The notes: generated by a model not told the origin, from the letters alone. A DNA stretch of 57,208 nt from Dehalococcoidia bacterium UBA1332 (GCA_002306745.1 DBSW01000155.1:1-57208), one strand, 5' to 3'; shown: positions 43,636 to 53,991, counted from the stretch's first letter. Program-made: numbers and translations.

Positions 43636-45063
43636 TTATTCTGGCACGAGCAGGCTCATGAATTCGTCGATAGCGATAGATTCCAATTGTGCCCGATCAC
43701 TAAATAATGAAAGCAACATTTCTACTCGTGCCGGACTGAGTTTTGTTTCTGCGTTAGACCGGAATTTTTCATATAGTAATGGTTTCGCTTCGTCTCTACG
43801 GCGTCTATGACCTATTGGATATTCCACCGTAACTTTTTTGGTCATAGACCCATCAATAAATTTAACTTGCAGAGCGTTAGCGATGGATCGCTTATCAGGA
43901 TCGAGATAGTCTTTACTAAATCGTTTATCGTGAACCACGACCATCTTGTCGCGTAAAAAATCTATTTGCTGGTCAGCCGCCGCATTATCCTCATAATCCT
44001 CGGCAGTGAGGCTTCCCTTTAATAAACCAACCGCCGTCATATATTGAATACAGTGATCGCGATCTGCGGGGTTATTTAATGGACCTGATTTATCGATAAT
44101 TTTTATCGCAGATTCCTGTGTTGTAATAATCACTTCTTGAATTTCATCTAACCGGTCCATAATTTCAGCATGTAACGAGAAAGCTGCTTCTACAGCTGTC
44201 TGAGCATGAAATTCAGCCGGAAAGGAAACCTTAAAAAGTATGTTTTCCATCACATACTTTTCTAGATCACGCTCGAGCGTGATCTGTTCTCCTTTGTACC
44301 AAACATCCTGAAATCCCCAATTCGGAGCTGTTAGAGCAGATGGGTAGCCCATCTCGCCAGCAATAGCGTTCATCCCAAAACGCACCGCTCGTCCTAGTGC
44401 ATCCCCTGCCGCCCACGACTTACGCGAACCAGTGTTTGGAGCGTGCCTATAAGTCCGCAAAGTAGCATCTAGCCAAGCATTTGAAACAGCATTTTCAACC
44501 TCACGTACGGTCCCACCCATCATAGAAGTAACAATCGCCGTCGAAGCAACTTTGACAAGCAGTACGTGATCGATACCCACTCGATTAAATGAATTATTGA
44601 GTGCCAATACGCCCTGAATTTCATAAGCTTTAATTCCGCACTTAATCACATCCAAAACCGTAAATTTTGAGCGCTCTTTAGGTTCCGAATTACGATTCAT
44701 AAAATCTGCTACGGACAAAATAGCACCGTAATTGTCAGATGGATGCCCCCATTCATCCGCAAGCCATGTGTCGTTATAGTCCAACCACCGAATTGCAGCT
44801 CCCATATCGAATGCCGCCTTGACAGGATCAAGTTCAAATCGAGTACCCATAACTCTGGATCCATTAGGAACAACGGTTCCAGCAACTTGGGGTCCAAGCA
44901 GCTTGGTACAGGCAGGATAATCCATTGCCAGAAGTGCGCAACCTATAGAATCCATCAAGGTCAGATTAGCGGTGTCGAGAGCTATATCAGAACTTGGTTT
45001 GTAATTGACTGCGTAGTCGGCGATAACCGATATAACAGTATCGGTAACCGGACCCTTTAACAT
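43636..45063 (-). CDS. prpD: 2-methylcitrate dehydratase
   Basis: RWLDYNDTWLA.EWGHPSDN, RTYRHAPNTGSRKSWAAGDA, FKVSFPAEFHAQTA, RDHCIQY. Confidence 0.95.
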   Translation of the reverse strand: MLKGPVTDTVISVIADYAVNYKPSSDIALDTANLTLMDSIGCALLAMDYPACTKLLGPQVAGTVVPNGSRVMGTRFELDPVKAAFDMGAAIRWLDYNDTWLADEWGHPSDNYGAILSVADFMNRNSEPKERSKFTVLDVIKCGIKAYEIQGVLALNNSFNRVGIDHVLLVKVASTAIVTSMMGGTVREVENAVSNAWLDATLRTYRHAPNTGSRKSWAAGDALGRAVRFGMNAIAGEMGYPSALTAPNWGFQDVWYKGEQITLERDLEKYVMENILFKVSFPAEFHAQTAVEAAFSLHAEIMDRLDEIQEVIITTQESAIKIIDKSGPLNNPADRDHCIQYMTAVGLLKGSLTAEDYEDNAAADQQIDFLRDKMVVVHDKRFSKDYLDPDKRSIANALQVKFIDGSMTKKVTVEYPIGHRRRRDEAKPLLYEKFRSNAETKLSPARVEMLLSLFSDRAQLESIAIDEFMSLLVPE

Positions 45064-46178
45064 TAGACCCGCTCCTCTAAATGTACATAAGGTCGTAATT
45101 TGGGGCCCGTGTAATCAGAAAGAGGTCTAATAAGCTTGTTGTTTGCCCGTTGCTCGATCACATGAGCAATCCAACCTGAGGTGCGAGCGATCACAAAGAC
45201 TGGGGTAAACATGGCAGTAGGAATACCACACATGTGGTATACAGTTGCAGCATAAAAATCCAAATTAGGATGCATGCTTTTCTCTCGCATCATCACTGTC
45301 TCTATTCTCTCAGAAATATCATAATACTTTGTATCAGCAGCAGAATCAGATAAACGCTTAGCAAGATCTTTTACTATAGGAGATCGTGGATCACCGTTCT
45401 TGTAAACACGGTGCCCAAATCCCATAATCAGGCGTCTAGCTTCGAGCATATGCAAAATAGATTTTTCGGCGTCGTGTGCGGAGTCAAATGAAGAAATCAG
45501 CTGCATAGCAGCCTCGTTAGCCCCACCGTGTAGGTTGCCTCTAAGAGCGCCAATAGCCCCAGCAACAGCAGAGTAAGAATCCGATAAAGTCGAAGTAACA
45601 ACCCTGGCTGTAAAAGTTGATGCGTTAAACTCATGTTCAGCATATAAGATTAGAGTTTTATCAAGTGCAGCCTGTTTCAGTGAATCGGATGGTTTCCCCG
45701 ACATCAAGCTCAAAAAGTGACCTGAAACTGTTTCTTCATCTGACTCAGTATCAATTTTCTCGTTTCTCGCGTGATATCTATACCAATACGCTAACATCGA
45801 TCCAAAGCACGCTGTGAGACGATCACCAACTGTTGCCGCAGTCCTACCATTTTTACCTTCCACTTCGATCGTTCCTAAGAGAGATGCCCCTGTTCTCAGA
45901 ACATCCATCGGATGAGTGCTGCTTGGAAGCATCTCTAAAAGTTTTTTTATCTGTTCAGGTAAATGCCTAAGTCCCATCAGTTTCTTTCTATAAGAAACAA
46001 GAAGCGCCTTAGATGGCAACTCACCGTATATCAGAAGGTAGGCAACTTCTTCAAATGTGGATTTCGCAGCTAAATCCTTTATCGAATAACCACGGTAAGT
46101 AAGACCTATATCCTCATGTCCAACGGTAGATATTCCTGAAGAGCCCGCAGTGATCCCGTTTAGCCCAGAAGAAGTCAT
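45063..46178 (-). CDS. prpC: 2-methylcitrate synthase
   Basis: LTYRGY, HPMDVLRT, YAEHEFNASTF, LHGGANE, GFGHRVY, PNLDF; between prpB and prpD. Confidence 0.92.
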   Translation of the reverse strand: MTSSGLNGITAGSSGISTVGHEDIGLTYRGYSIKDLAAKSTFEEVAYLLIYGELPSKALLVSYRKKLMGLRHLPEQIKKLLEMLPSSTHPMDVLRTGASLLGTIEVEGKNGRTAATVGDRLTACFGSMLAYWYRYHARNEKIDTESDEETVSGHFLSLMSGKPSDSLKQAALDKTLILYAEHEFNASTFTARVVTSTLSDSYSAVAGAIGALRGNLHGGANEAAMQLISSFDSAHDAEKSILHMLEARRLIMGFGHRVYKNGDPRSPIVKDLAKRLSDSAADTKYYDISERIETVMMREKSMHPNLDFYAATVYHMCGIPTAMFTPVFVIARTSGWIAHVIEQRANNKLIRPLSDYTGPKLRPYVHLEERV

Positions 46179-46219
46179 TTAAATGGTCCTTTTAAAGAGT
46201 GGAGCCTACCACTCTGTCT

Positions 46220-47104
46220 CTAGTCTTGTGAATCTAATTTGAATAACTCATTTAATTTATTCTCATACTTGTGATAGTCGAGAAATTCGTAGAGTTCAGA
46301 GCGGGTCTGTAGATCATCAATAATTCTCTTCTGAGATCCATCAGACCTAATAACTTTCAATGCTCTCTCAGCAGCTCTGTTCGCCGCACGGAACAAAGTA
46401 AGCGGGTACAGCGCGATATCCACACCAGCGTCACGCAGTTCGTTAACGGTAAAATTTGGAGTCTCTCCAAACTCCGTAAGATTCGCCAGAATAGGTACAT
46501 CAAGTGCATCATGGAATCGTCTGAAGTCTTCGATCGTTTTCACGGCTTCCGCAAAAATCATGTCCGCCCCAGCTTCTACATAGGCATATGACCGATTGAT
46601 TGCTGAATCTACTCCTTCGTTGGCAATAGAATCAGTCCTTGCCATTACAACGAAGTCATCATATTCCTTTGCATCGGATGCAGCTTTAATTCGATCGCAC
46701 ATTTCAGCCTTGGAAACAATTTGTTTGCCGGGTCTATGACCGCATCGTTTTGCTTGAACTTGATCCTCGATGTGGACACCAGCGGCCCCAGAACGAGCCA
46801 TTTCTTTAATTGTCCTAGCAATCATGAAAGCTCCACCCCAGCCTGTATCAACATCTACTAGCAGTGGGAGATCGGAAACAGAAGTAATACGTCGGACATC
46901 TTCGAGCACATTATCAAGTGTAGTCATACCCAGATCGGGTAGTCCATATGAAGAAGTTGCGACGCCAGACCCCGATAAGTACAGTGCCCTAAAGTCAGCG
47001 TCTTTAGCCATAATTGCGTGGTATGGATTTGTAACACCTATGACCTGCAAAGGTGATTCTTCACGAAGCGCGATACGGAATAATGTTCCGGTAAGTATTT
47101 CCAT
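46220..47104 (-). CDS. prpB: methylisocitrate lyase
   Basis: GLPDLG, DVDTGWG, IEDQVQAKRCGHRPGK, ARTD, ANLTEFG.TP. Confidence 0.95.
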   Translation of the reverse strand: MEILTGTLFRIALREESPLQVIGVTNPYHAIMAKDADFRALYLSGSGVATSSYGLPDLGMTTLDNVLEDVRRITSVSDLPLLVDVDTGWGGAFMIARTIKEMARSGAAGVHIEDQVQAKRCGHRPGKQIVSKAEMCDRIKAASDAKEYDDFVVMARTDSIANEGVDSAINRSYAYVEAGADMIFAEAVKTIEDFRRFHDALDVPILANLTEFGETPNFTVNELRDAGVDIALYPLTLFRAANRAAERALKVIRSDGSQKRIIDDLQTRSELYEFLDYHKYENKLNELFKLDSQD

Positions 47105-49224: not shown

Positions 49225-50421
49225 TTAAAGAAGATTCTTTACGATAGCCATAAGGACACCAGCCACGGTCGCGGTACCGATAACCCCAGCCACGTTTGGT
49301 CCCATCGCATGCATTAACAAAAAATTATTTGGGTCTTCTTTCTGTCCCATGTCCTGAACGACACGAGCAGCCATTGGAACTGCGGAAACTCCTGCAGCAC
49401 CGATCATTGGGTTGACTTTTTCACCGCTGACTAAGTTCATCAATTTCGCCAAAAGAATTCCAGCGACAGTTGCAGTCATAAAAGCGAACAAACCAAGGAA
49501 GAAGATACCAATTGTCTCAGGTTGTAAAAACACTTCCGCTGGCATAGTCGAACCGACAGCAAGTCCAAGCAGGATAATCACTGCGTTCATAAGAGCGTTT
49601 TCAGAAACATCGGCTAAGCGAGGAACAACTCCAGAAACCTTAATCAAATTTCCAAGCATGAGCATACCAATAAGCGGCGACGCTGAGGGAACCAAGACAC
49701 TTATTATGATCGTAGTGAGCACAGGAAATAAAACTTGGGTTCGCTTAGAAACTGGTTTAGCCGAATACTCCATACGAATCAGGCGTTCCTTTTGAGTAGT
49801 AAGAAGCTTAATTATTGGAGGCTGAATAATTGGTACTAGTGCCATGTAAGAATACGCAGCAACAGCTGTTGCTCCGACGATATCTCTGACTTCTACGTGC
49901 GGAAGTGATTCACCCAGCTCTCTCATTCGAGTAGCTATGAAAATTGTTGTAGGTCCATCAGCTCCTCCGATAATTCCAATAGATGATGCTTCCAACAAGC
50001 CAAATTCGAAGAAATCTGTCATACCCAGCAGCAAAGCACCTAATAATGCAACAAACACACCTGCCTGGGCACCAGCCCCGAGAAGCAAAGTCTTTGGATT
50101 GGACAACATTGGCGTGAAATCAGTAGCTGCCCCAACTCCCAAAAAGATTAGCAATGGAAATATATCGGTTTCCATTCCTACGGTCTGAAAAGTTTTCAAC
50201 AGCCCAGCTGGTTCCCCATGACCGCCTTCACGAATAAGTTCTCCTAGAGGAAGATTTGCAAATAGAATTCCCATAGAGATCGGGACAAGAAGCAGCGGTT
50301 CCTTCTTTTTGGCTACTCCGACGTAAAGTAAAGCCCCGGCGATAACCCACATGATTATCATTCGCGGCTCTTCCCCTAGCGCCACAAAACCTTCCCATAG
50401 CGAACCTAACTCAGTCGACAT
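49225..50421 (-). CDS. oadB: Na+-translocating decarboxylase beta subunit
   Basis: EPLLLVPI, FLGVGA.TDF, IIGGADGPT, AAYSYMALVPIIQPP, MHAMGPNVAGVIG. Confidence 0.95.
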   Translation of the reverse strand: MSTELGSLWEGFVALGEEPRMIIMWVIAGALLYVGVAKKKEPLLLVPISMGILFANLPLGELIREGGHGEPAGLLKTFQTVGMETDIFPLLIFLGVGAATDFTPMLSNPKTLLLGAGAQAGVFVALLGALLLGMTDFFEFGLLEASSIGIIGGADGPTTIFIATRMRELGESLPHVEVRDIVGATAVAAYSYMALVPIIQPPIIKLLTTQKERLIRMEYSAKPVSKRTQVLFPVLTTIIISVLVPSASPLIGMLMLGNLIKVSGVVPRLADVSENALMNAVIILLGLAVGSTMPAEVFLQPETIGIFFLGLFAFMTATVAGILLAKLMNLVSGEKVNPMIGAAGVSAVPMAARVVQDMGQKEDPNNFLLMHAMGPNVAGVIGTATVAGVLMAIVKNLL

Positions 50422-50426
50422 AGACC

Positions 50427-50876
50427 TCAGTCCTGCGTTATCTCGGCCAGTGATTGACCGTGCTGGACTGCATCGCCGGCTGCCACAAGAACCGAAGAAA
50501 CAGTACCATCAACTGGTGCTGCGATAGTGTTTTCCATCTTCATCGACTCAAGCACAACTATTGACTGTCCTTTAGTGACCGCATCACCGACCGAAACTCC
50601 AACGTTCAATATTTTGCCCGGCATTGGAGCCCTAACGACACCATCACTTCCAGCCGTAGGAACGGATGGACGAGAAACCGGTTCTGGTGTCTTCGAAACC
50701 CGTTGTGCGGAGGGTGAAGGTTCTACTGCAGGTCGAGATGAAACAATATGTTCGGGTAGCTCCACCTGGTAAAGGGTTCCATCAACTGAAACTTCTACGG
50801 GTGAAGAAGATAAATCCCCGATTTCAATATCATAATTCTGACCGGCAATTTTGATCTTATATTTTTTAGTAGACAC
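50427..50876 (-). CDS. biotin carboxyl carrier protein
   Basis: APMPGKI, LESMKMEN biotinyl-Lys motif, Pro/Ser linker, N-terminal beta-rich association domain. Confidence 0.92.
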   Translation of the reverse strand: MSTKKYKIKIAGQNYDIEIGDLSSSPVEVSVDGTLYQVELPEHIVSSRPAVEPSPSAQRVSKTPEPVSRPSVPTAGSDGVVRAPMPGKILNVGVSVGDAVTKGQSIVVLESMKMENTIAAPVDGTVSSVLVAAGDAVQHGQSLAEITQD

Positions 50877-51244
50877 TATCTACCAGCCTCCCTAACACCT
50901 AACGGGACTGAACTAAGTTCTCGCATCCTACCAGCCTGTAACCAAGAACCCGTACTCTCGCTCCTGGAAAGCGTAGCCTTATTGATTGCCCTAGGCTGAG
51001 AAAGAGCAAAAGCGAGGGCTACGGCAGCAACCTGTTGTTTCGTAATTCCACGATCATGACTGCTCTTCAAAAGTACAGTTGTGTCCTCTGAAAATGAATC
51101 AGCAGTTATGGTGGAAGCTGGTTCTCGGTCTAGCATTCCAATTGCTTTAATCGCTATGGCAAGAAGAGCCAGTACGACAAAAACCACACCCATGCCGACA
51201 AGGCTGACAGTTAAACCGTCATATAGCAGGTCCTGGTCAAACGT
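50876..51244 (-). CDS. oadG: Na+-decarboxylase small membrane subunit (OadG/MmdD family)
   Basis: GLTVSLVGMGVVFVVLALL TM helix, VAAVALA, SW...GR. Frame is open back to an ACG at 51244 with AAGGAG 7 nt upstream; first ATG is 51193. Confidence 0.8.
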   Translation of the reverse strand, partial: TFDQDLLYDGLTVSLVGMGVVFVVLALLAIAIKAIGMLDREPASTITADSFSEDTTVLLKSSHDRGITKQQVAAVALAFALSQPRAINKATLSRSESTGSWLQAGRMRELSSVPLGVREAGR

Positions 51245-51341
51245 GGTATTACTCCTTCAACTAACAACGCTGATTGCACAGCCGAACTAATGAACTGAAT
51301 CTATCGTCATATATAAGTCGTACGATTCTAACAAAACAACG

Positions 51342-52424
51342 CTAAATAGCGGGGTGTATTTCTTCGACAGAAACCGGATAAACAGCCCCATCAATCGACA
51401 CAAGCTCGGCACCATCATTTTCGCTAACACCGATATTGGTCTGGGAACCATTTACAAAAAACGCCGTATCCTCAACAACGTCAACTATTGGCGTTCCTGC
51501 AAGCAGCTTCATTTTCTGATTAAGTGCGTCCTGAGCTTCTTCAACAGAAATTGACACAAATGACAATTCCATCCCGGGTTTAACCTGTCCAAGTATTGGT
51601 AAATCAACGCTGGCGACGGTCGCTATTTTTGCGTAACCACCTGTCGTCTGACGGTCTGCAAGTAAAACGATAGGCATACCGTCTCCTGGAATCTGTACTG
51701 ATCCATTAACCACAGCATCGGAAATAATGTCGTACACTCCAGACTTGCTTTCAATTACCGGACCATCGAGTCGTAGCCCCTGCCTATTTGACTGTTCAGT
51801 GATCGTGTATTCCGACTCGAGAAAAGTATGTATTCCGATATCCGAAAACAAATTGTCCTGAGGGCCCAAAACTACGCGTATAGCAAGTGAAGTCAGGTTT
51901 AGATCTGTAGTAAAATTCTGGGACAATCCAGAACGGGCAAACTTATCAGACTCACCTAAATTAAGAACATCGCCACTTTCGAGTTTTCTGCCCATTACGC
52001 CACCGATCTGCGAAGCAACATGCGTTGATCTTGACCCGAGAGTTTTCGGCACATCTATTCCACCAGCGATAGAAATGTAGGATCTTAACCCGTCGGTCGC
52101 CATTCCCAATTCCAGTAATGATCCAGTATGTGCAACATAAGAAACATTAGTACCTAGCAATACACCGTCTAGGGTGGCATATGTATTAGCACCGGTCAGC
52201 GCAAAAATGGTCTGCTTATTGAACTCTAGAGATAATCCTCCAATCATCACTTCTAGTCCAGCACGGTCCGACGAATTGCCAACAAGCCGATTACCTAAAA
52301 GCATAGAGTCAATGTCCACAGCCCCTGAAACTGAAACCCCCAAACTTTGAAAACCCGCCCTCCCCTGATCTTGAATCAAAGTCAAAGGACCCGGATCAAC
52401 AATTCGAATTGATCCGTTATTCAT
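51342..52424 (-). CDS. pxpC: 5-oxoprolinase subunit C / KipA-type carboxyltransferase domain with C-terminal extension
   Basis: PGPLTLIQDQGR, SGAVD, NRLVGN, GLRSY, GSRST, SNRQGLRL, GSVQIP.DG.PIVLLADRQTTGGY. Confidence 0.9.
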   Translation of the reverse strand: MNNGSIRIVDPGPLTLIQDQGRAGFQSLGVSVSGAVDIDSMLLGNRLVGNSSDRAGLEVMIGGLSLEFNKQTIFALTGANTYATLDGVLLGTNVSYVAHTGSLLELGMATDGLRSYISIAGGIDVPKTLGSRSTHVASQIGGVMGRKLESGDVLNLGESDKFARSGLSQNFTTDLNLTSLAIRVVLGPQDNLFSDIGIHTFLESEYTITEQSNRQGLRLDGPVIESKSGVYDIISDAVVNGSVQIPGDGMPIVLLADRQTTGGYAKIATVASVDLPILGQVKPGMELSFVSISVEEAQDALNQKMKLLAGTPIVDVVEDTAFFVNGSQTNIGVSENDGAELVSIDGAVYPVSVEEIHPAI

Positions 52425-53109
52425 GAGATGTCACTGGCACAAACCGTACACGAGATCCCGGTGTGATCTTTGACGGAGTGTGGCTACTAATATCGAATAA
52501 CTTGGTTACTGTACGACCAATAATCTGCCAACCGCCAGGACTTTCGTTGGGGTATACGCCTGTTTGCGATTCAGCTATTCCGACCGAACCTGCTGGAATT
52601 AGGATACGCGGAGTTTTGAGCCTTGGAGTAGCAATGCGGCTGTCAAGTCCTCCGAGATAAGGAAACCCTGGAGCAAATCCTATCATGTACACCCGATAGT
52701 CAACTGAACTGTGTATATCGACGACCTGTTCAATTGTCAGGCCAGCATGGTCAGCTACGTTTTGAATATCGGGACCTGCTTCACCCCCATAAACCACTGG
52801 CAACTCGATAACGACTGGGTTAAACACAATTTTTTCACCAACAACTTGATTTTCCAAAATGACGGTCAGCTGTTCAAACAGTACTCGAAAACTAGTAACT
52901 AATGGATCATAGTTCACTAAAAGAGATCGGTAAGTGGGTATAAATTCGCTAACACCTCGAAGGTTAGCACGCTTTATTTGTTCAACTAATGCATAAACAG
53001 AATCGTTGATCGCAACATCAATCTCAGCACCTAACTCTATTAGGATCGCAGAGTCACCCGCCGGGACTAGACGCGGAAAGACTTGCAGTTTGCTATCAGT
53101 CGCGTCCAA
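52417..53109 (-). CDS. pxpB: 5-oxoprolinase subunit B / KipI-type
   Basis: GDSAILIE, PTYRSLLV.YDP, PVVYGG..GPD, GFAPGFPYL, GSVGIA, YP.ESPGGWQIIGRT. Confidence 0.92.
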   Translation of the reverse strand: MDATDSKLQVFPRLVPAGDSAILIELGAEIDVAINDSVYALVEQIKRANLRGVSEFIPTYRSLLVNYDPLVTSFRVLFEQLTVILENQVVGEKIVFNPVVIELPVVYGGEAGPDIQNVADHAGLTIEQVVDIHSSVDYRVYMIGFAPGFPYLGGLDSRIATPRLKTPRILIPAGSVGIAESQTGVYPNESPGGWQIIGRTVTKLFDISSHTPSKITPGSRVRFVPVTSHE

Positions 53110-53110
53110 C

Positions 53111-53893
53111 TTAAATTCCTGATAAAAGTTCGTGCATAGGTGTCACTTCAACACCTGCTGATTCAAGAGTTGATCTAACACCGGCTGCCAGCTGAACCGA
53201 TCCATCTGTATCTCCATGTAAACAGATAGAATCTGCTGAAAAATCTATCTCAGTACCATCTACAGCATTCACTTTGCCTTCCGTAGCAAGTTTGAGCGAC
53301 CTAGCAATAACTTCATTGGGATCATGGACGACGGCACCCGGCTGAGAACGAGGAACAAGCGTCCCTTCAGGAGTTACAGCACGATCGGCATAACACTCTC
53401 TCGCGACTTTTACACCATGCGAACGAGCGATCTTCTCCCACTGTGATCCCGCCAAAACAACATGTATGAGGTCCCCATCGTAAGCCTTTACTGCTGCCAC
53501 AATTGCTTCAGCGATAGCCGCATCACGCACAGCCGTGTTATATAAGGCGCCGTGCGGCTTGACATGTTGAAGTTTTTTTCCAGGCGCAAATGCTGAAAGT
53601 GCGCCAATCTGGTACGTGACTGCGTTATAGACTTCGTCAGCAGTGAGGTCCATGTTACGTCGCCCGAATCCGGCAAGATCTGGATAAGCAGGATGGGCAC
53701 CGATGCCAACGTCATTTTTCACCGCCAACGAGACTGTTTTTGCCATCCAATCTGGATCTCCCGCATGAAAACCCGTAGCAATATTTGCGGACGTAATGTG
53801 CTTGACTATCTCACTATCTAGACCTAGCTCGTAACCAGCGAACGACTCACCAATATCTGCGTTAAAATCGATTTTTCCTACATTAGATGTCAA
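53111..53893 (-). CDS. pxpA: 5-oxoprolinase subunit A (LamB/YcsF)
   Basis: IDFNADIGE, ANIA.GFHAGD, GAHP.YPD..GFGRR, HVKPHGALYN, ICLHGD. TTG at 53893 with GGAG upstream preferred. Confidence 0.93.
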   Translation of the reverse strand: MTSNVGKIDFNADIGESFAGYELGLDSEIVKHITSANIATGFHAGDPDWMAKTVSLAVKNDVGIGAHPAYPDLAGFGRRNMDLTADEVYNAVTYQIGALSAFAPGKKLQHVKPHGALYNTAVRDAAIAEAIVAAVKAYDGDLIHVVLAGSQWEKIARSHGVKVARECYADRAVTPEGTLVPRSQPGAVVHDPNEVIARSLKLATEGKVNAVDGTEIDFSADSICLHGDTDGSVQLAAGVRSTLESAGVEVTPMHELLSGI

Positions 53894-53991
53894 TTTTTTA
53901 GCTCCGTTTGTAACCTTTCGTTGTATCAATGTAAATTTTTGAGGTAAATACAGATTTGTCTATTCCAATCAAAGGAATATTTGAACCTAAT

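Follow-up and report, generated by a model that had tools for sequence, protein, structure and literature searches.

The window analysed here, the whole 57,208-nucleotide stretch of Dehalococcoidia bacterium UBA1332 (GCA_002306745.1 DBSW01000155.1:1-57208), carries on its minus strand a run of six genes that ORF calls and Pfam/TIGR scans identify as pxpA, pxpB, pxpC, an oadG-like anchor gene, a biotin carrier (BCCP) gene and oadB (Table 1). According to the same scans the first three are adjacent, belong to the usual families and lie in the usual order. The true start of pxpA may lie about 17 codons inside the called ORF. PxpC, whose predicted core fold matches YbgK and MSMEG_0435 when the model is compared with the PDB, passes the broader TIGR00724 model but at 251.7 bits falls below the 500-bit cut-off of the PxpC equivalog (NF045499). 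From pxpA to oadB the run contains neither a canonical carboxyltransferase (CT) gene, as judged from ORFs and a Pfam scan, nor a biotin carboxylase (BC) gene, as judged from ORFs and Pfam/TIGR scans.

Table 1. Features of the pxp-oad gene run, numbered from the first nucleotide of the window.
Feature	Position	Strand	Description
pxpA	53111..53929	-	LamB/YcsF family, predicted lactam hydrolase; PF03746; NF003814 above cut-off
pxpB	52417..53109	-	CT subdomains C/D; PF02682; TIGR00370 above cut-off
pxpC	51342..52424	-	360 aa; urea-carboxylase-type CT subdomains A/B plus tail; PF02626 E 2e-86; TIGR00724 above cut-off
PxpC C-terminal tail, residues 313-360	51345..51488	-	predicted half of BT-like barrel
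PxpC tail four-strand meander (predicted), residues 320-351	51467-51372	-	
oadG-like membrane anchor	50876..51244	-	PF04277 E 2.5e-9
OadG Ala-rich C-terminal helix ITKQQVAAVALAFALS	50999..51046	-	predicted core of BT-like barrel; conserved in 29 aligned sequences
OadG WxxxGR motif	50927..50944	-	sequence alignment
bccp	50427..50876	-	biotin carrier with ESMKM (Lys113)
BCCP N-terminal two-hairpin module, residues 4-41	50754..50867	-	predicted second barrel half; profile match
oadB	49225..50421	-	Na+-translocating carboxybiotin decarboxylase beta subunit; PF03977 E 1e-140

Parts of a Na+-translocating decarboxylase are present—a gamma/delta anchor, an MKM-type biotin carrier and a biotin ligase—and bccp is the only MKM-type carrier found in the host genome (G000), which is 80% complete. 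Pieces of an MmdA-like CT sit on other contigs of this genome, and OadA was not found in it at that completeness. Aligned to 6IVA, OadB has intact Na+-site residues (Glu40, Asp203, Tyr229, Arg304, Asn311, Asn373, Gly377, Ser382, Asn412) with the exception of Ser419, which is Thr; the residue list is that of PMC7274780. One Ala of the OadG helix is invariant across the aligned sequences, and the helix precedes a WxxxGR motif that is kept across the family and is also found at the BC C-termini of relatives. By analogy with AccE, whose C-terminus binds the CT hexamer in the mycobacterial LCC (PMC13012033), we infer that the OadG WxxxGR motif binds a crotonase-type CT hexamer.

No ATG, GTG or TTG lies ahead of the OadG membrane helix in the window (51244-51242, minus strand), and loci L002-L024 and L040-L086 were compared at this place. 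An ACG stands 7-8 nt after a GGAG (7-10 in a few) in 23 of 23 genus loci, and the same position in other families is ATA, ATC or ATT (7 loci), ACG (2), ATG (2) or GTG (1). Judging from these sequences oadG probably starts at the conserved ACG codon, a weak start that may set OadG levels and at which gene callers would shorten the protein. A marine metatranscriptome contains 0.48 of the sampled sequence words, and contigs from four marine metatranscriptomes match parts of pxpA, pxpC, oadG, bccp and oadB. One 810-nt RNA contig among these spans the bccp-oadB junction; none of the contigs of the four crosses the 98 bp between pxpC and oadG. In two studies RNA contigs stop at 51255-51257, at the oadG ribosome-binding site (window 51255-51279), which hints weakly that oadG-bccp-oadB may have a transcript start of its own. 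Directly downstream of the run, at 43636-47104 on the minus strand, lie putative methylcitrate-cycle genes, prpD-, prpC- and prpB-like by their motifs. The same arrangement is seen in G010, G005, G022, G016 and G534, and it would place propionyl-CoA metabolism next to a biotin hub.

The original prediction held that PxpC has an extra C-terminal tail and pointed to 51342-51476, which encodes PxpC residues 317-360 and the stop codon. The tail is indeed real and conserved. The CT_A_B match in Pfam stops at residue 290 and the TIGR00724 match at 305, alignments with the solved homologues YbgK and MSMEG_0435 go no further than residues 303 and 286, short of the tail, and nearly all of the best 120 homologues listed run on into a similar tail. 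The two sequences that the prediction quoted, from the tail and from the BCCP N-terminus, are exact, and the likeness it drew between them is thin when the two are aligned pairwise (7/14 identities; BLASTP E 0.009 for one comparison) but firm at the level of profiles. With hhalign, 31 tails matched 25 BCCP N-termini with Prob 93.6 and E 2.1e-7 over 41 columns, while a beta-rich segment of the PxpC core gave Prob 1.4 against the BCCP N-terminal profile and the tail gave Prob 25.9 against the biotinyl domain.

Other searches returned fainter signals. Both the tail and the BCCP N-terminus weakly match Pfam ACCA_BT (PF21385; E 0.0038 and 0.05), below its cut-off (17.5 bits against 27). Among the ORFs of the host genome the tail profile ranks BCCP second, with E 0.28, and the BCCP N-terminal profile fails to retrieve the tail there at E 20. 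Against 1.84 billion proteins the tail profile found 47 matches; a Pfam scan of 23 of these gave 6 with CT_A_B, 1 BCCP, 9 that are mostly Ig-like or other repeat proteins and 7 without a family, which look like PxpC C-terminal fragments. The short VxVxGxxY hairpin is generic. PDB sequence searches with the tail and BCCP N-terminal profiles retrieved no BT domain, and a related-loci search with a single protein as query gave no match.

The two hairpins foreseen in the tail appear as four strands in AlphaFold2 models. In full-length PxpC they span residues 320-324, 327-336, 339-344 and 347-351 with a mean pLDDT of 92.5, the tail modelled alone yields the identical four strands (pLDDT 79.7), and the modelled arrangement is a four-stranded antiparallel meander. 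In a Foldseek search of 350,542 PDB chains the top match of the tail model was 5KS8_C, a chain of the two-subunit pyruvate carboxylase (prob 1.00, TMq 0.64), with a weak E of 0.085 (above 0.001); 4 of the top 11 rows are 5KS8 chains, and the top 40 also include human and S. aureus pyruvate carboxylase, yeast and human ACC, and MCC. VIA placed 5KS8_C second (Z 3.9, rmsd 2.8, 41 aligned), its Z tied with unrelated beta-propellers and its alignment falling on 5KS8 residues 468-514, the BT-like region. Because Foldseek and VIA concur with the weak ACCA_BT matches, we regard the tail as probably BT-like, each score being weak by itself.

Such a module finds precedent in two assemblies. In the two-subunit pyruvate carboxylase, two four-strand sheets from two chains surround an Ala-rich helix, and an Ala-to-Arg change in that helix abolishes assembly (PMC5059739); in the mycobacterial LCC the AccE helix is enclosed by hairpins from four chains, and MSMEG_0435, a homologue of PxpC, binds biotin carried by a BCCP (PMC13012033). 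In OAD, deletion of the gamma C-terminal tail lowers alpha binding (PMC7274780). A three-chain model of the OadG helix, the BCCP N-terminus and the PxpC tail, which the original prediction had proposed, passed weakly: it scored 0.37 against 0.02 for the best control, and 0.02 was also the value when the BCCP N-terminus was replaced. Contact agreement between runs was at least 87% and partner pLDDT at least 64, and the model gave no interface. Of 157 solved complexes 116 came up to the mark for such scores, as did 2 of 215 mismatches, and among passing scores of 0.60 or less there were only 18 solved complexes plus both mismatches. The pass may also owe something to likeness to solved BT domains. 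Taken together, these results support the tail as a BCCP-N-like, BT-type docking module for which OadG supplies a matching Ala-rich helix, and sequence likeness suggests that the second sheet of the barrel, from another chain, is the BCCP N-terminus.

Within the genus, pxpC was found in 23 of the 25 genomes, and in 21 of these 23 oadB is no more than about 1 kb away on the same contig; the remaining two loci end at contig ends, with oadG directly after pxpC. Sixteen other families of the order were surveyed: pxpC is present in 11, every one with a four-strand tail, and in 8 of the 11 oadB lies within 5 kb in a head-to-head layout unlike that of the genus. Counted by lineage, the order has 32 units, of which 18 contain PxpC together with OadB and 11 contain neither (Fisher 6.6e-6, a value that ignores kinship and overstates the association). 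Further afield, 80 GTDB loci sorted by eye comprise 11 with four-strand tails, all Chloroflexota and 8 with oadB in the locus, 12 with one-hairpin tails, all Bacillota and only 1 beside oadB, and 57 without a strand tail, in whose fetched flanks oadB was never found. The last group includes Lachnospiraceae-type operons that enclose accB and accC, as well as two PxpBC-BCCP fusions; such fusions and pxpBC-accB-accC-pxpA operons tie Pxp to biotin elsewhere. The PxpB-PxpC-BCCP fusions of Methylomirabilota (NC10; L069:4360-7305 and L080) resemble a urea carboxylase minus its biotin carboxylase.

The mere presence of oadB somewhere in a genome does not predict a tail. It was found in 27 of 34 tail-less GTDB genomes, adjacent to pxpC in none, in a genome-wide search that covered 50 of the 76 GTDB loci L064-L139, chosen by hand, and then 5 more. 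Likewise, 79 other Chloroflexota genomes with pxpC include 23 with oadB, again never adjacent; C-termini were read in 29 of these loci, and the other 50 were classed as tail-less from a profile match ending at or before position 331. Natroniella (L065), in which bccp-oadB immediately precedes a pxp operon of the ycsF type whose PxpC has a one-hairpin tail, is not counted as the same system because no oadG was seen.

Nor is the tail confined to PxpC encoded beside oadB, the pattern that the original prediction proposed to look for. The Bacillota loci above already depart from that pattern. Tails were also kept in four genomes in which oadB was not found (G534, G341, G345 and G346), and a different order contributes 11 tailed genomes (family f100) whose oadB is far away. 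G534 (L270:5619-9539 and L290:5860-7350), a 95% complete genome of the same family, shares the locus, flanked by prpB/tauE/dapA-like genes on one side and DUF971/Gfo genes on the other, but without oadB; the tail and BCCP are retained and OadG is cut down to a soluble two-helix protein with WxxxGR. A biotin carboxylase follows mmdA-icd-mdh in this genome, its C-terminus bearing WxxGR and no Ala-rich helix, and of five biotin/lipoyl matches the one in the pxp operon is the sole short biotin carrier. G341 has pxpABC, a soluble helix-WxxxGR ORF and BCCP. In the complete chromosomes G345 and G346, as in the 11 f100 genomes, no carrier or helix gene adjoins pxpC; both chromosomes encode an OadA-BCCP fusion with a hairpin, preceded in G345 by an epsilon-like helix gene. 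Each of four genomes checked (G345, G405, G446 and G504) has a one-hairpin OadA-BCCP fusion and an epsilon-like or OadG helix protein elsewhere in the genome.

The helix is seen on several proteins. In G467 and G572, which have no pxp or oadB, helix-WxxxGR lies on the BC C-terminus beside a four-strand BCCP, and in G030 it lies on the BC C-terminus with pxp and oadB also present, so that the OadG tail and the BC C-terminus look interchangeable. The type of helix to which the PxpC tail is predicted to bind is common to OadG, soluble epsilon-like proteins and BC C-termini. Since the tail persists in G534, G341, G345, G346 and the f100 genomes, it tracks the carrier-plus-helix hub rather than the pump, and the shared helix type means that it shows a link to the biotin hub and not specifically to OadB. 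The proposed tether of PxpC to OadG and BCCP is therefore borne out as far as a BT-type module and a matching OadG helix, with the binding itself predicted, and fails in its specificity for the pump.

Biotin carboxylase was found in none of the 25 genus genomes and in 1 of 31 genomes of the family, namely G534. When the 32 units of the order are counted (the genus being one unit, kinship uncorrected), 16 have OadB without BC, 4 both, 11 BC without OadB and 1 neither; the Fisher value of 1.3e-4 ignores kinship and overstates the opposition. The genus keeps an AccD-AccA fusion, an MmdA-like CT, and FabD in 4 of 5 genomes with BirA in 5 of 5, the FabD gap being the incomplete host genome. The one carrier must be charged by some route. 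Methylmalonyl-CoA mutase was found in 0 of 5 genus genomes. OadA-like CTs occur in only 4 of 25 genus genomes, in 21 of 50 genomes overall and in 10 of 16 other families, and an MmdA-like CT occurs in most relatives (PF01039 in 40/40). Because BC was not found in the genus and is present in G534, where oadB is lost, OadB likely replaces the missing ATP-dependent enzyme, perhaps by running backwards.

Two observations bear on the sodium economy of these cells. The membrane pyrophosphatase of the host genome (G000:C134, L329:777-2879) has its gate Glu one turn earlier than the plant H+ pump and an Ala at what we take to be the site governing K+ dependence, and the c subunit of the host ATP synthase lacks what we presume to be the Na+ motif. 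An early gate Glu is the Na+-type position in membrane pyrophosphatases (PMC9408878), and on its sequence the enzyme is likely a Na+-pyrophosphatase. (A membrane pyrophosphatase gene also lies near the pxp locus of G341.) Second, MnhE of the Mrp antiporter was found in 1 of 27 oadB-positive and 7 of 11 oadB-negative genomes, a distribution that argues for forward pumping, with OadB as a Na+ exporter. On the side of the chemistry, 5-oxoproline hydrolysis is uphill, with a Keq of about 0.035 (PMC13274462), so energy input is needed, and Pxp could not drive the pump with 5-oxoproline as substrate. PxpABC is reported to be ATP-dependent and PxpBC is assumed to phosphorylate the substrate (PMC13274462, PMC8453981).

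We consider it probable that the PxpC tail joins the BCCP N-terminal sheet around the OadG Ala-rich helix, although all structural scores are weak, the tail persists where oadB was not found and no RNA contig bridges pxpC and oadG. Docked in this way, the tail would tether PxpABC to the biotin carrier on the OadB/OadG membrane module, and the carrier would likely be a hub shared by PxpBC, remote MmdA-like and AccDA carboxyltransferases and OadB. For the chemistry, substrate and direction of the system we infer the following. OadB would run in reverse, with Na+ influx loading CO2 on biotin in place of the ATP-dependent biotin carboxylase, and the Na+ gradient would be paid for by the likely Na+-pyrophosphatase. 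PxpBC would then transfer the carboxyl group from biotin to the nitrogen of a lactam (5-oxoproline or a related compound), leaving the activated ring to be opened by PxpA. The absence of a detected BC in the host makes reverse operation plausible, and we favour it, with PxpBC as consumer, because BC was not found while the CTs and FabD are kept, the Na+ residues are intact, the pyrophosphatase is likely of the Na+ type and the reaction is uphill. The Mrp distribution, the reported hydrolysis of ATP by PxpBC (PMC8453981) and the mycobacterial homologue, which binds biotin as an inhibitor, speak against this direction. Given docking, we put it at slightly short of an even chance. The broader proposal is more tentative: in a large marine group of Dehalococcoidia reverse OadB would substitute for biotin carboxylase, the Na+ gradient would charge the sole biotin carrier of the cell, and BT-tailed CTs, PxpBC included, would draw on it to open lactams and make fatty acids.

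It also counts against our reading that OadB has ordinary MmdA-like and OadA-like CT partners elsewhere. In the strongest rival reading, which is unlikely but deserves weight, the pump is a conventional decarboxylase of malonyl-/methylmalonyl-CoA (or oxaloacetate) that runs forward and receives its carboxyl groups from remote MmdA-like, AccDA or OadA-like CTs via WxxxGR and helix, with PxpABC as a docked client that draws off carboxybiotin. The MmdA-like CT of relatives, the conserved OadG WxxxGR, the OadA-like CTs of the other families and the Mrp pattern all fit such a scheme; the missing methylmalonyl-CoA mutase, the scarcity of OadA-like CTs in the genus and the continuing need of FabD and AccDA for carboxybiotin do not.

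Rather unlikely, in our estimate, is that the tail docks and the pump runs forward with PxpBC as the source of the carboxyl group on biotin. PxpBC might load biotin from ATP and bicarbonate as a non-ATP-grasp biotin carboxylase, making the whole an ATP-driven Na+ pump, or might take CO2 from some N-carboxy substrate. ATP hydrolysis is indeed reported for PxpBC (PMC8453981), over most of the order PxpABC and OadB jointly take the place of biotin carboxylase and Mrp, and the joint presence and absence of PxpC and OadB noted above is as this scheme would have it. Against it, G534 keeps PxpABC yet has a biotin carboxylase and has lost oadB, and because accC is encoded inside the Lachnospiraceae-type pxp operons, Pxp looks like a client of biotin carboxylase and not a substitute for it.

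We find it improbable that PxpBC is a docked regulator that sequesters biotin and throttles the hub, PxpABC catalysis being ATP-dependent and biotin-free. MSMEG_0435-0436 offers a model for this, since it binds BCCP biotin, lowers propionyl-CoA carboxylase activity and showed no urea carboxylase activity (PMC13012033), and at two urea carboxylase positions, Tyr1324 and Lys1605, the alignment places Val239 and Arg163 in PxpC; accB and accC within pxp operons and the PxpBC-BCCP fusions fit turnover better than inhibition. Least probable of all is that the tail is a generic beta-meander, for self-association or a leftover, in a gene neighbourhood that is inherited synteny: the motif does score on Ig-like repeats, the structural scores are weak and the tails of G345, G346 and f100 are far from any carrier gene, but there are two independent gene layouts, the carrier and helix gene stay beside pxpC after oadB loss in G534 and G341, BT domains are enriched among the fold matches and the complex score collapses without the BCCP N-terminus.

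The preferred reading, a docked PxpBC drawing on biotin that reverse-running OadB has charged, borrows its parts from several known systems. It resembles the barrels of the two-subunit pyruvate carboxylase (5KS8; PMC5059739) and of AccE/AccA3 in LCC (PMC13012033) in placing an Ala-rich helix of one chain inside strands of others, and would differ in building its two sheets from separate proteins, PxpC and BCCP, around a helix that a membrane anchor supplies. With the Na+ decarboxylases OadABG, MmdABCD, Gcd and Mad (6IVA/6IWW; PMC7274780) it shares the Na+-site residues of OadB, a biotin carrier and an anchor of the gamma/delta type, the subunit that in those enzymes recruits the soluble part through its C-terminal helix; unlike theirs, the operon has no TIM-barrel or crotonase CT and contains instead a urea-carboxylase-type CT (PxpBC) and a lactamase (PxpA). 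PxpABC 5-oxoprolinase (KipI/KipA/YcsF, YbgJKL) has the same three genes, families and order and the YbgK core fold, whereas here there is an extra 48-residue tail with a link to a biotin carrier and pump, and described members use ATP and no biotin. The CT fold and a proposed logic of N-carboxylation followed by hydrolysis recall urea carboxylase and urea amidolyase (3VA7, 5I8I), but BC, CT and BCCP are not in one chain here; the genes are separate and no BC was found. Of the urea carboxylase residues Asp1321, Tyr1324 and Lys1605, which we take to be catalytic, the equivalent of the first is kept (Asp236), in contrast to the substitutions at the other two. Split urea-CT homologues are described in bacteria and Thermococcales (PMC3199775). 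MSMEG_0435-0436 on LCC (9YX5) likewise has a PxpC homologue binding BCCP biotin, although it has no tail (294 aa), binds AccD5 directly and is an in vitro inhibitor.

In the open-access literature that we searched, no paper was found that links pxpABC to oadB or to a PxpC tail; the parts and the principle of assembly are known, and the combination is absent from that literature. PxpABC-BCCP-OadBG would be an undescribed enzyme complex, perhaps one in which a Na+ gradient instead of ATP loads biotin. PxpBC presents a puzzle, being a carboxyltransferase fold described as an ATP-using, biotin-free enzyme, and that question becomes testable with a PxpC whose tail is a docking tag for the carrier of biotin; the reverse-pump reading, if true, would also show that PxpBC is a true biotin carboxyltransferase. 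Biotin carboxylation would then cost two Na+ and not one ATP, in energy-poor water. Should OadB replace biotin carboxylase in vivo, this would be a physiological ion-gradient-driven biotin carboxylation, which to our knowledge is otherwise known only from in vitro reversal, reportedly that of Dimroth and Hilpert in 1984. The tail also marks a modular rule, in which helix and hairpin tags let different carboxyltransferases share one carrier.

Related arrangements of hairpins, helices and carriers were seen at other loci. The BCCP-less OadA-like enzymes of G009, G010, G011 and G190 end in a hairpin similar to that of the tail, and divergent OadA-like CTs that have no biotin domain carry one docking hairpin at their end (L225:5756-7351, L230, L232 and L233). 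G547 (L318), 96% complete, has a four-strand BCCP preceded by a short, N-free but ORF-poor stretch, and biotin carboxylase, oadB and pxpC were not found in this genome. In six loci of other families (L181, L182, L183, L186, L189 and L229) an OadA/5S-BCCP fusion comes after an MmdA-like gene, the pair being a probable transcarboxylase-like set, and in L183, L186, L189 and L229 a small epsilon-like helix ORF lies between the two. G036 has ten PYC_OADA matches, and in L312 and L314 (family f100) OadA-like proteins carry two tandem biotin domains.
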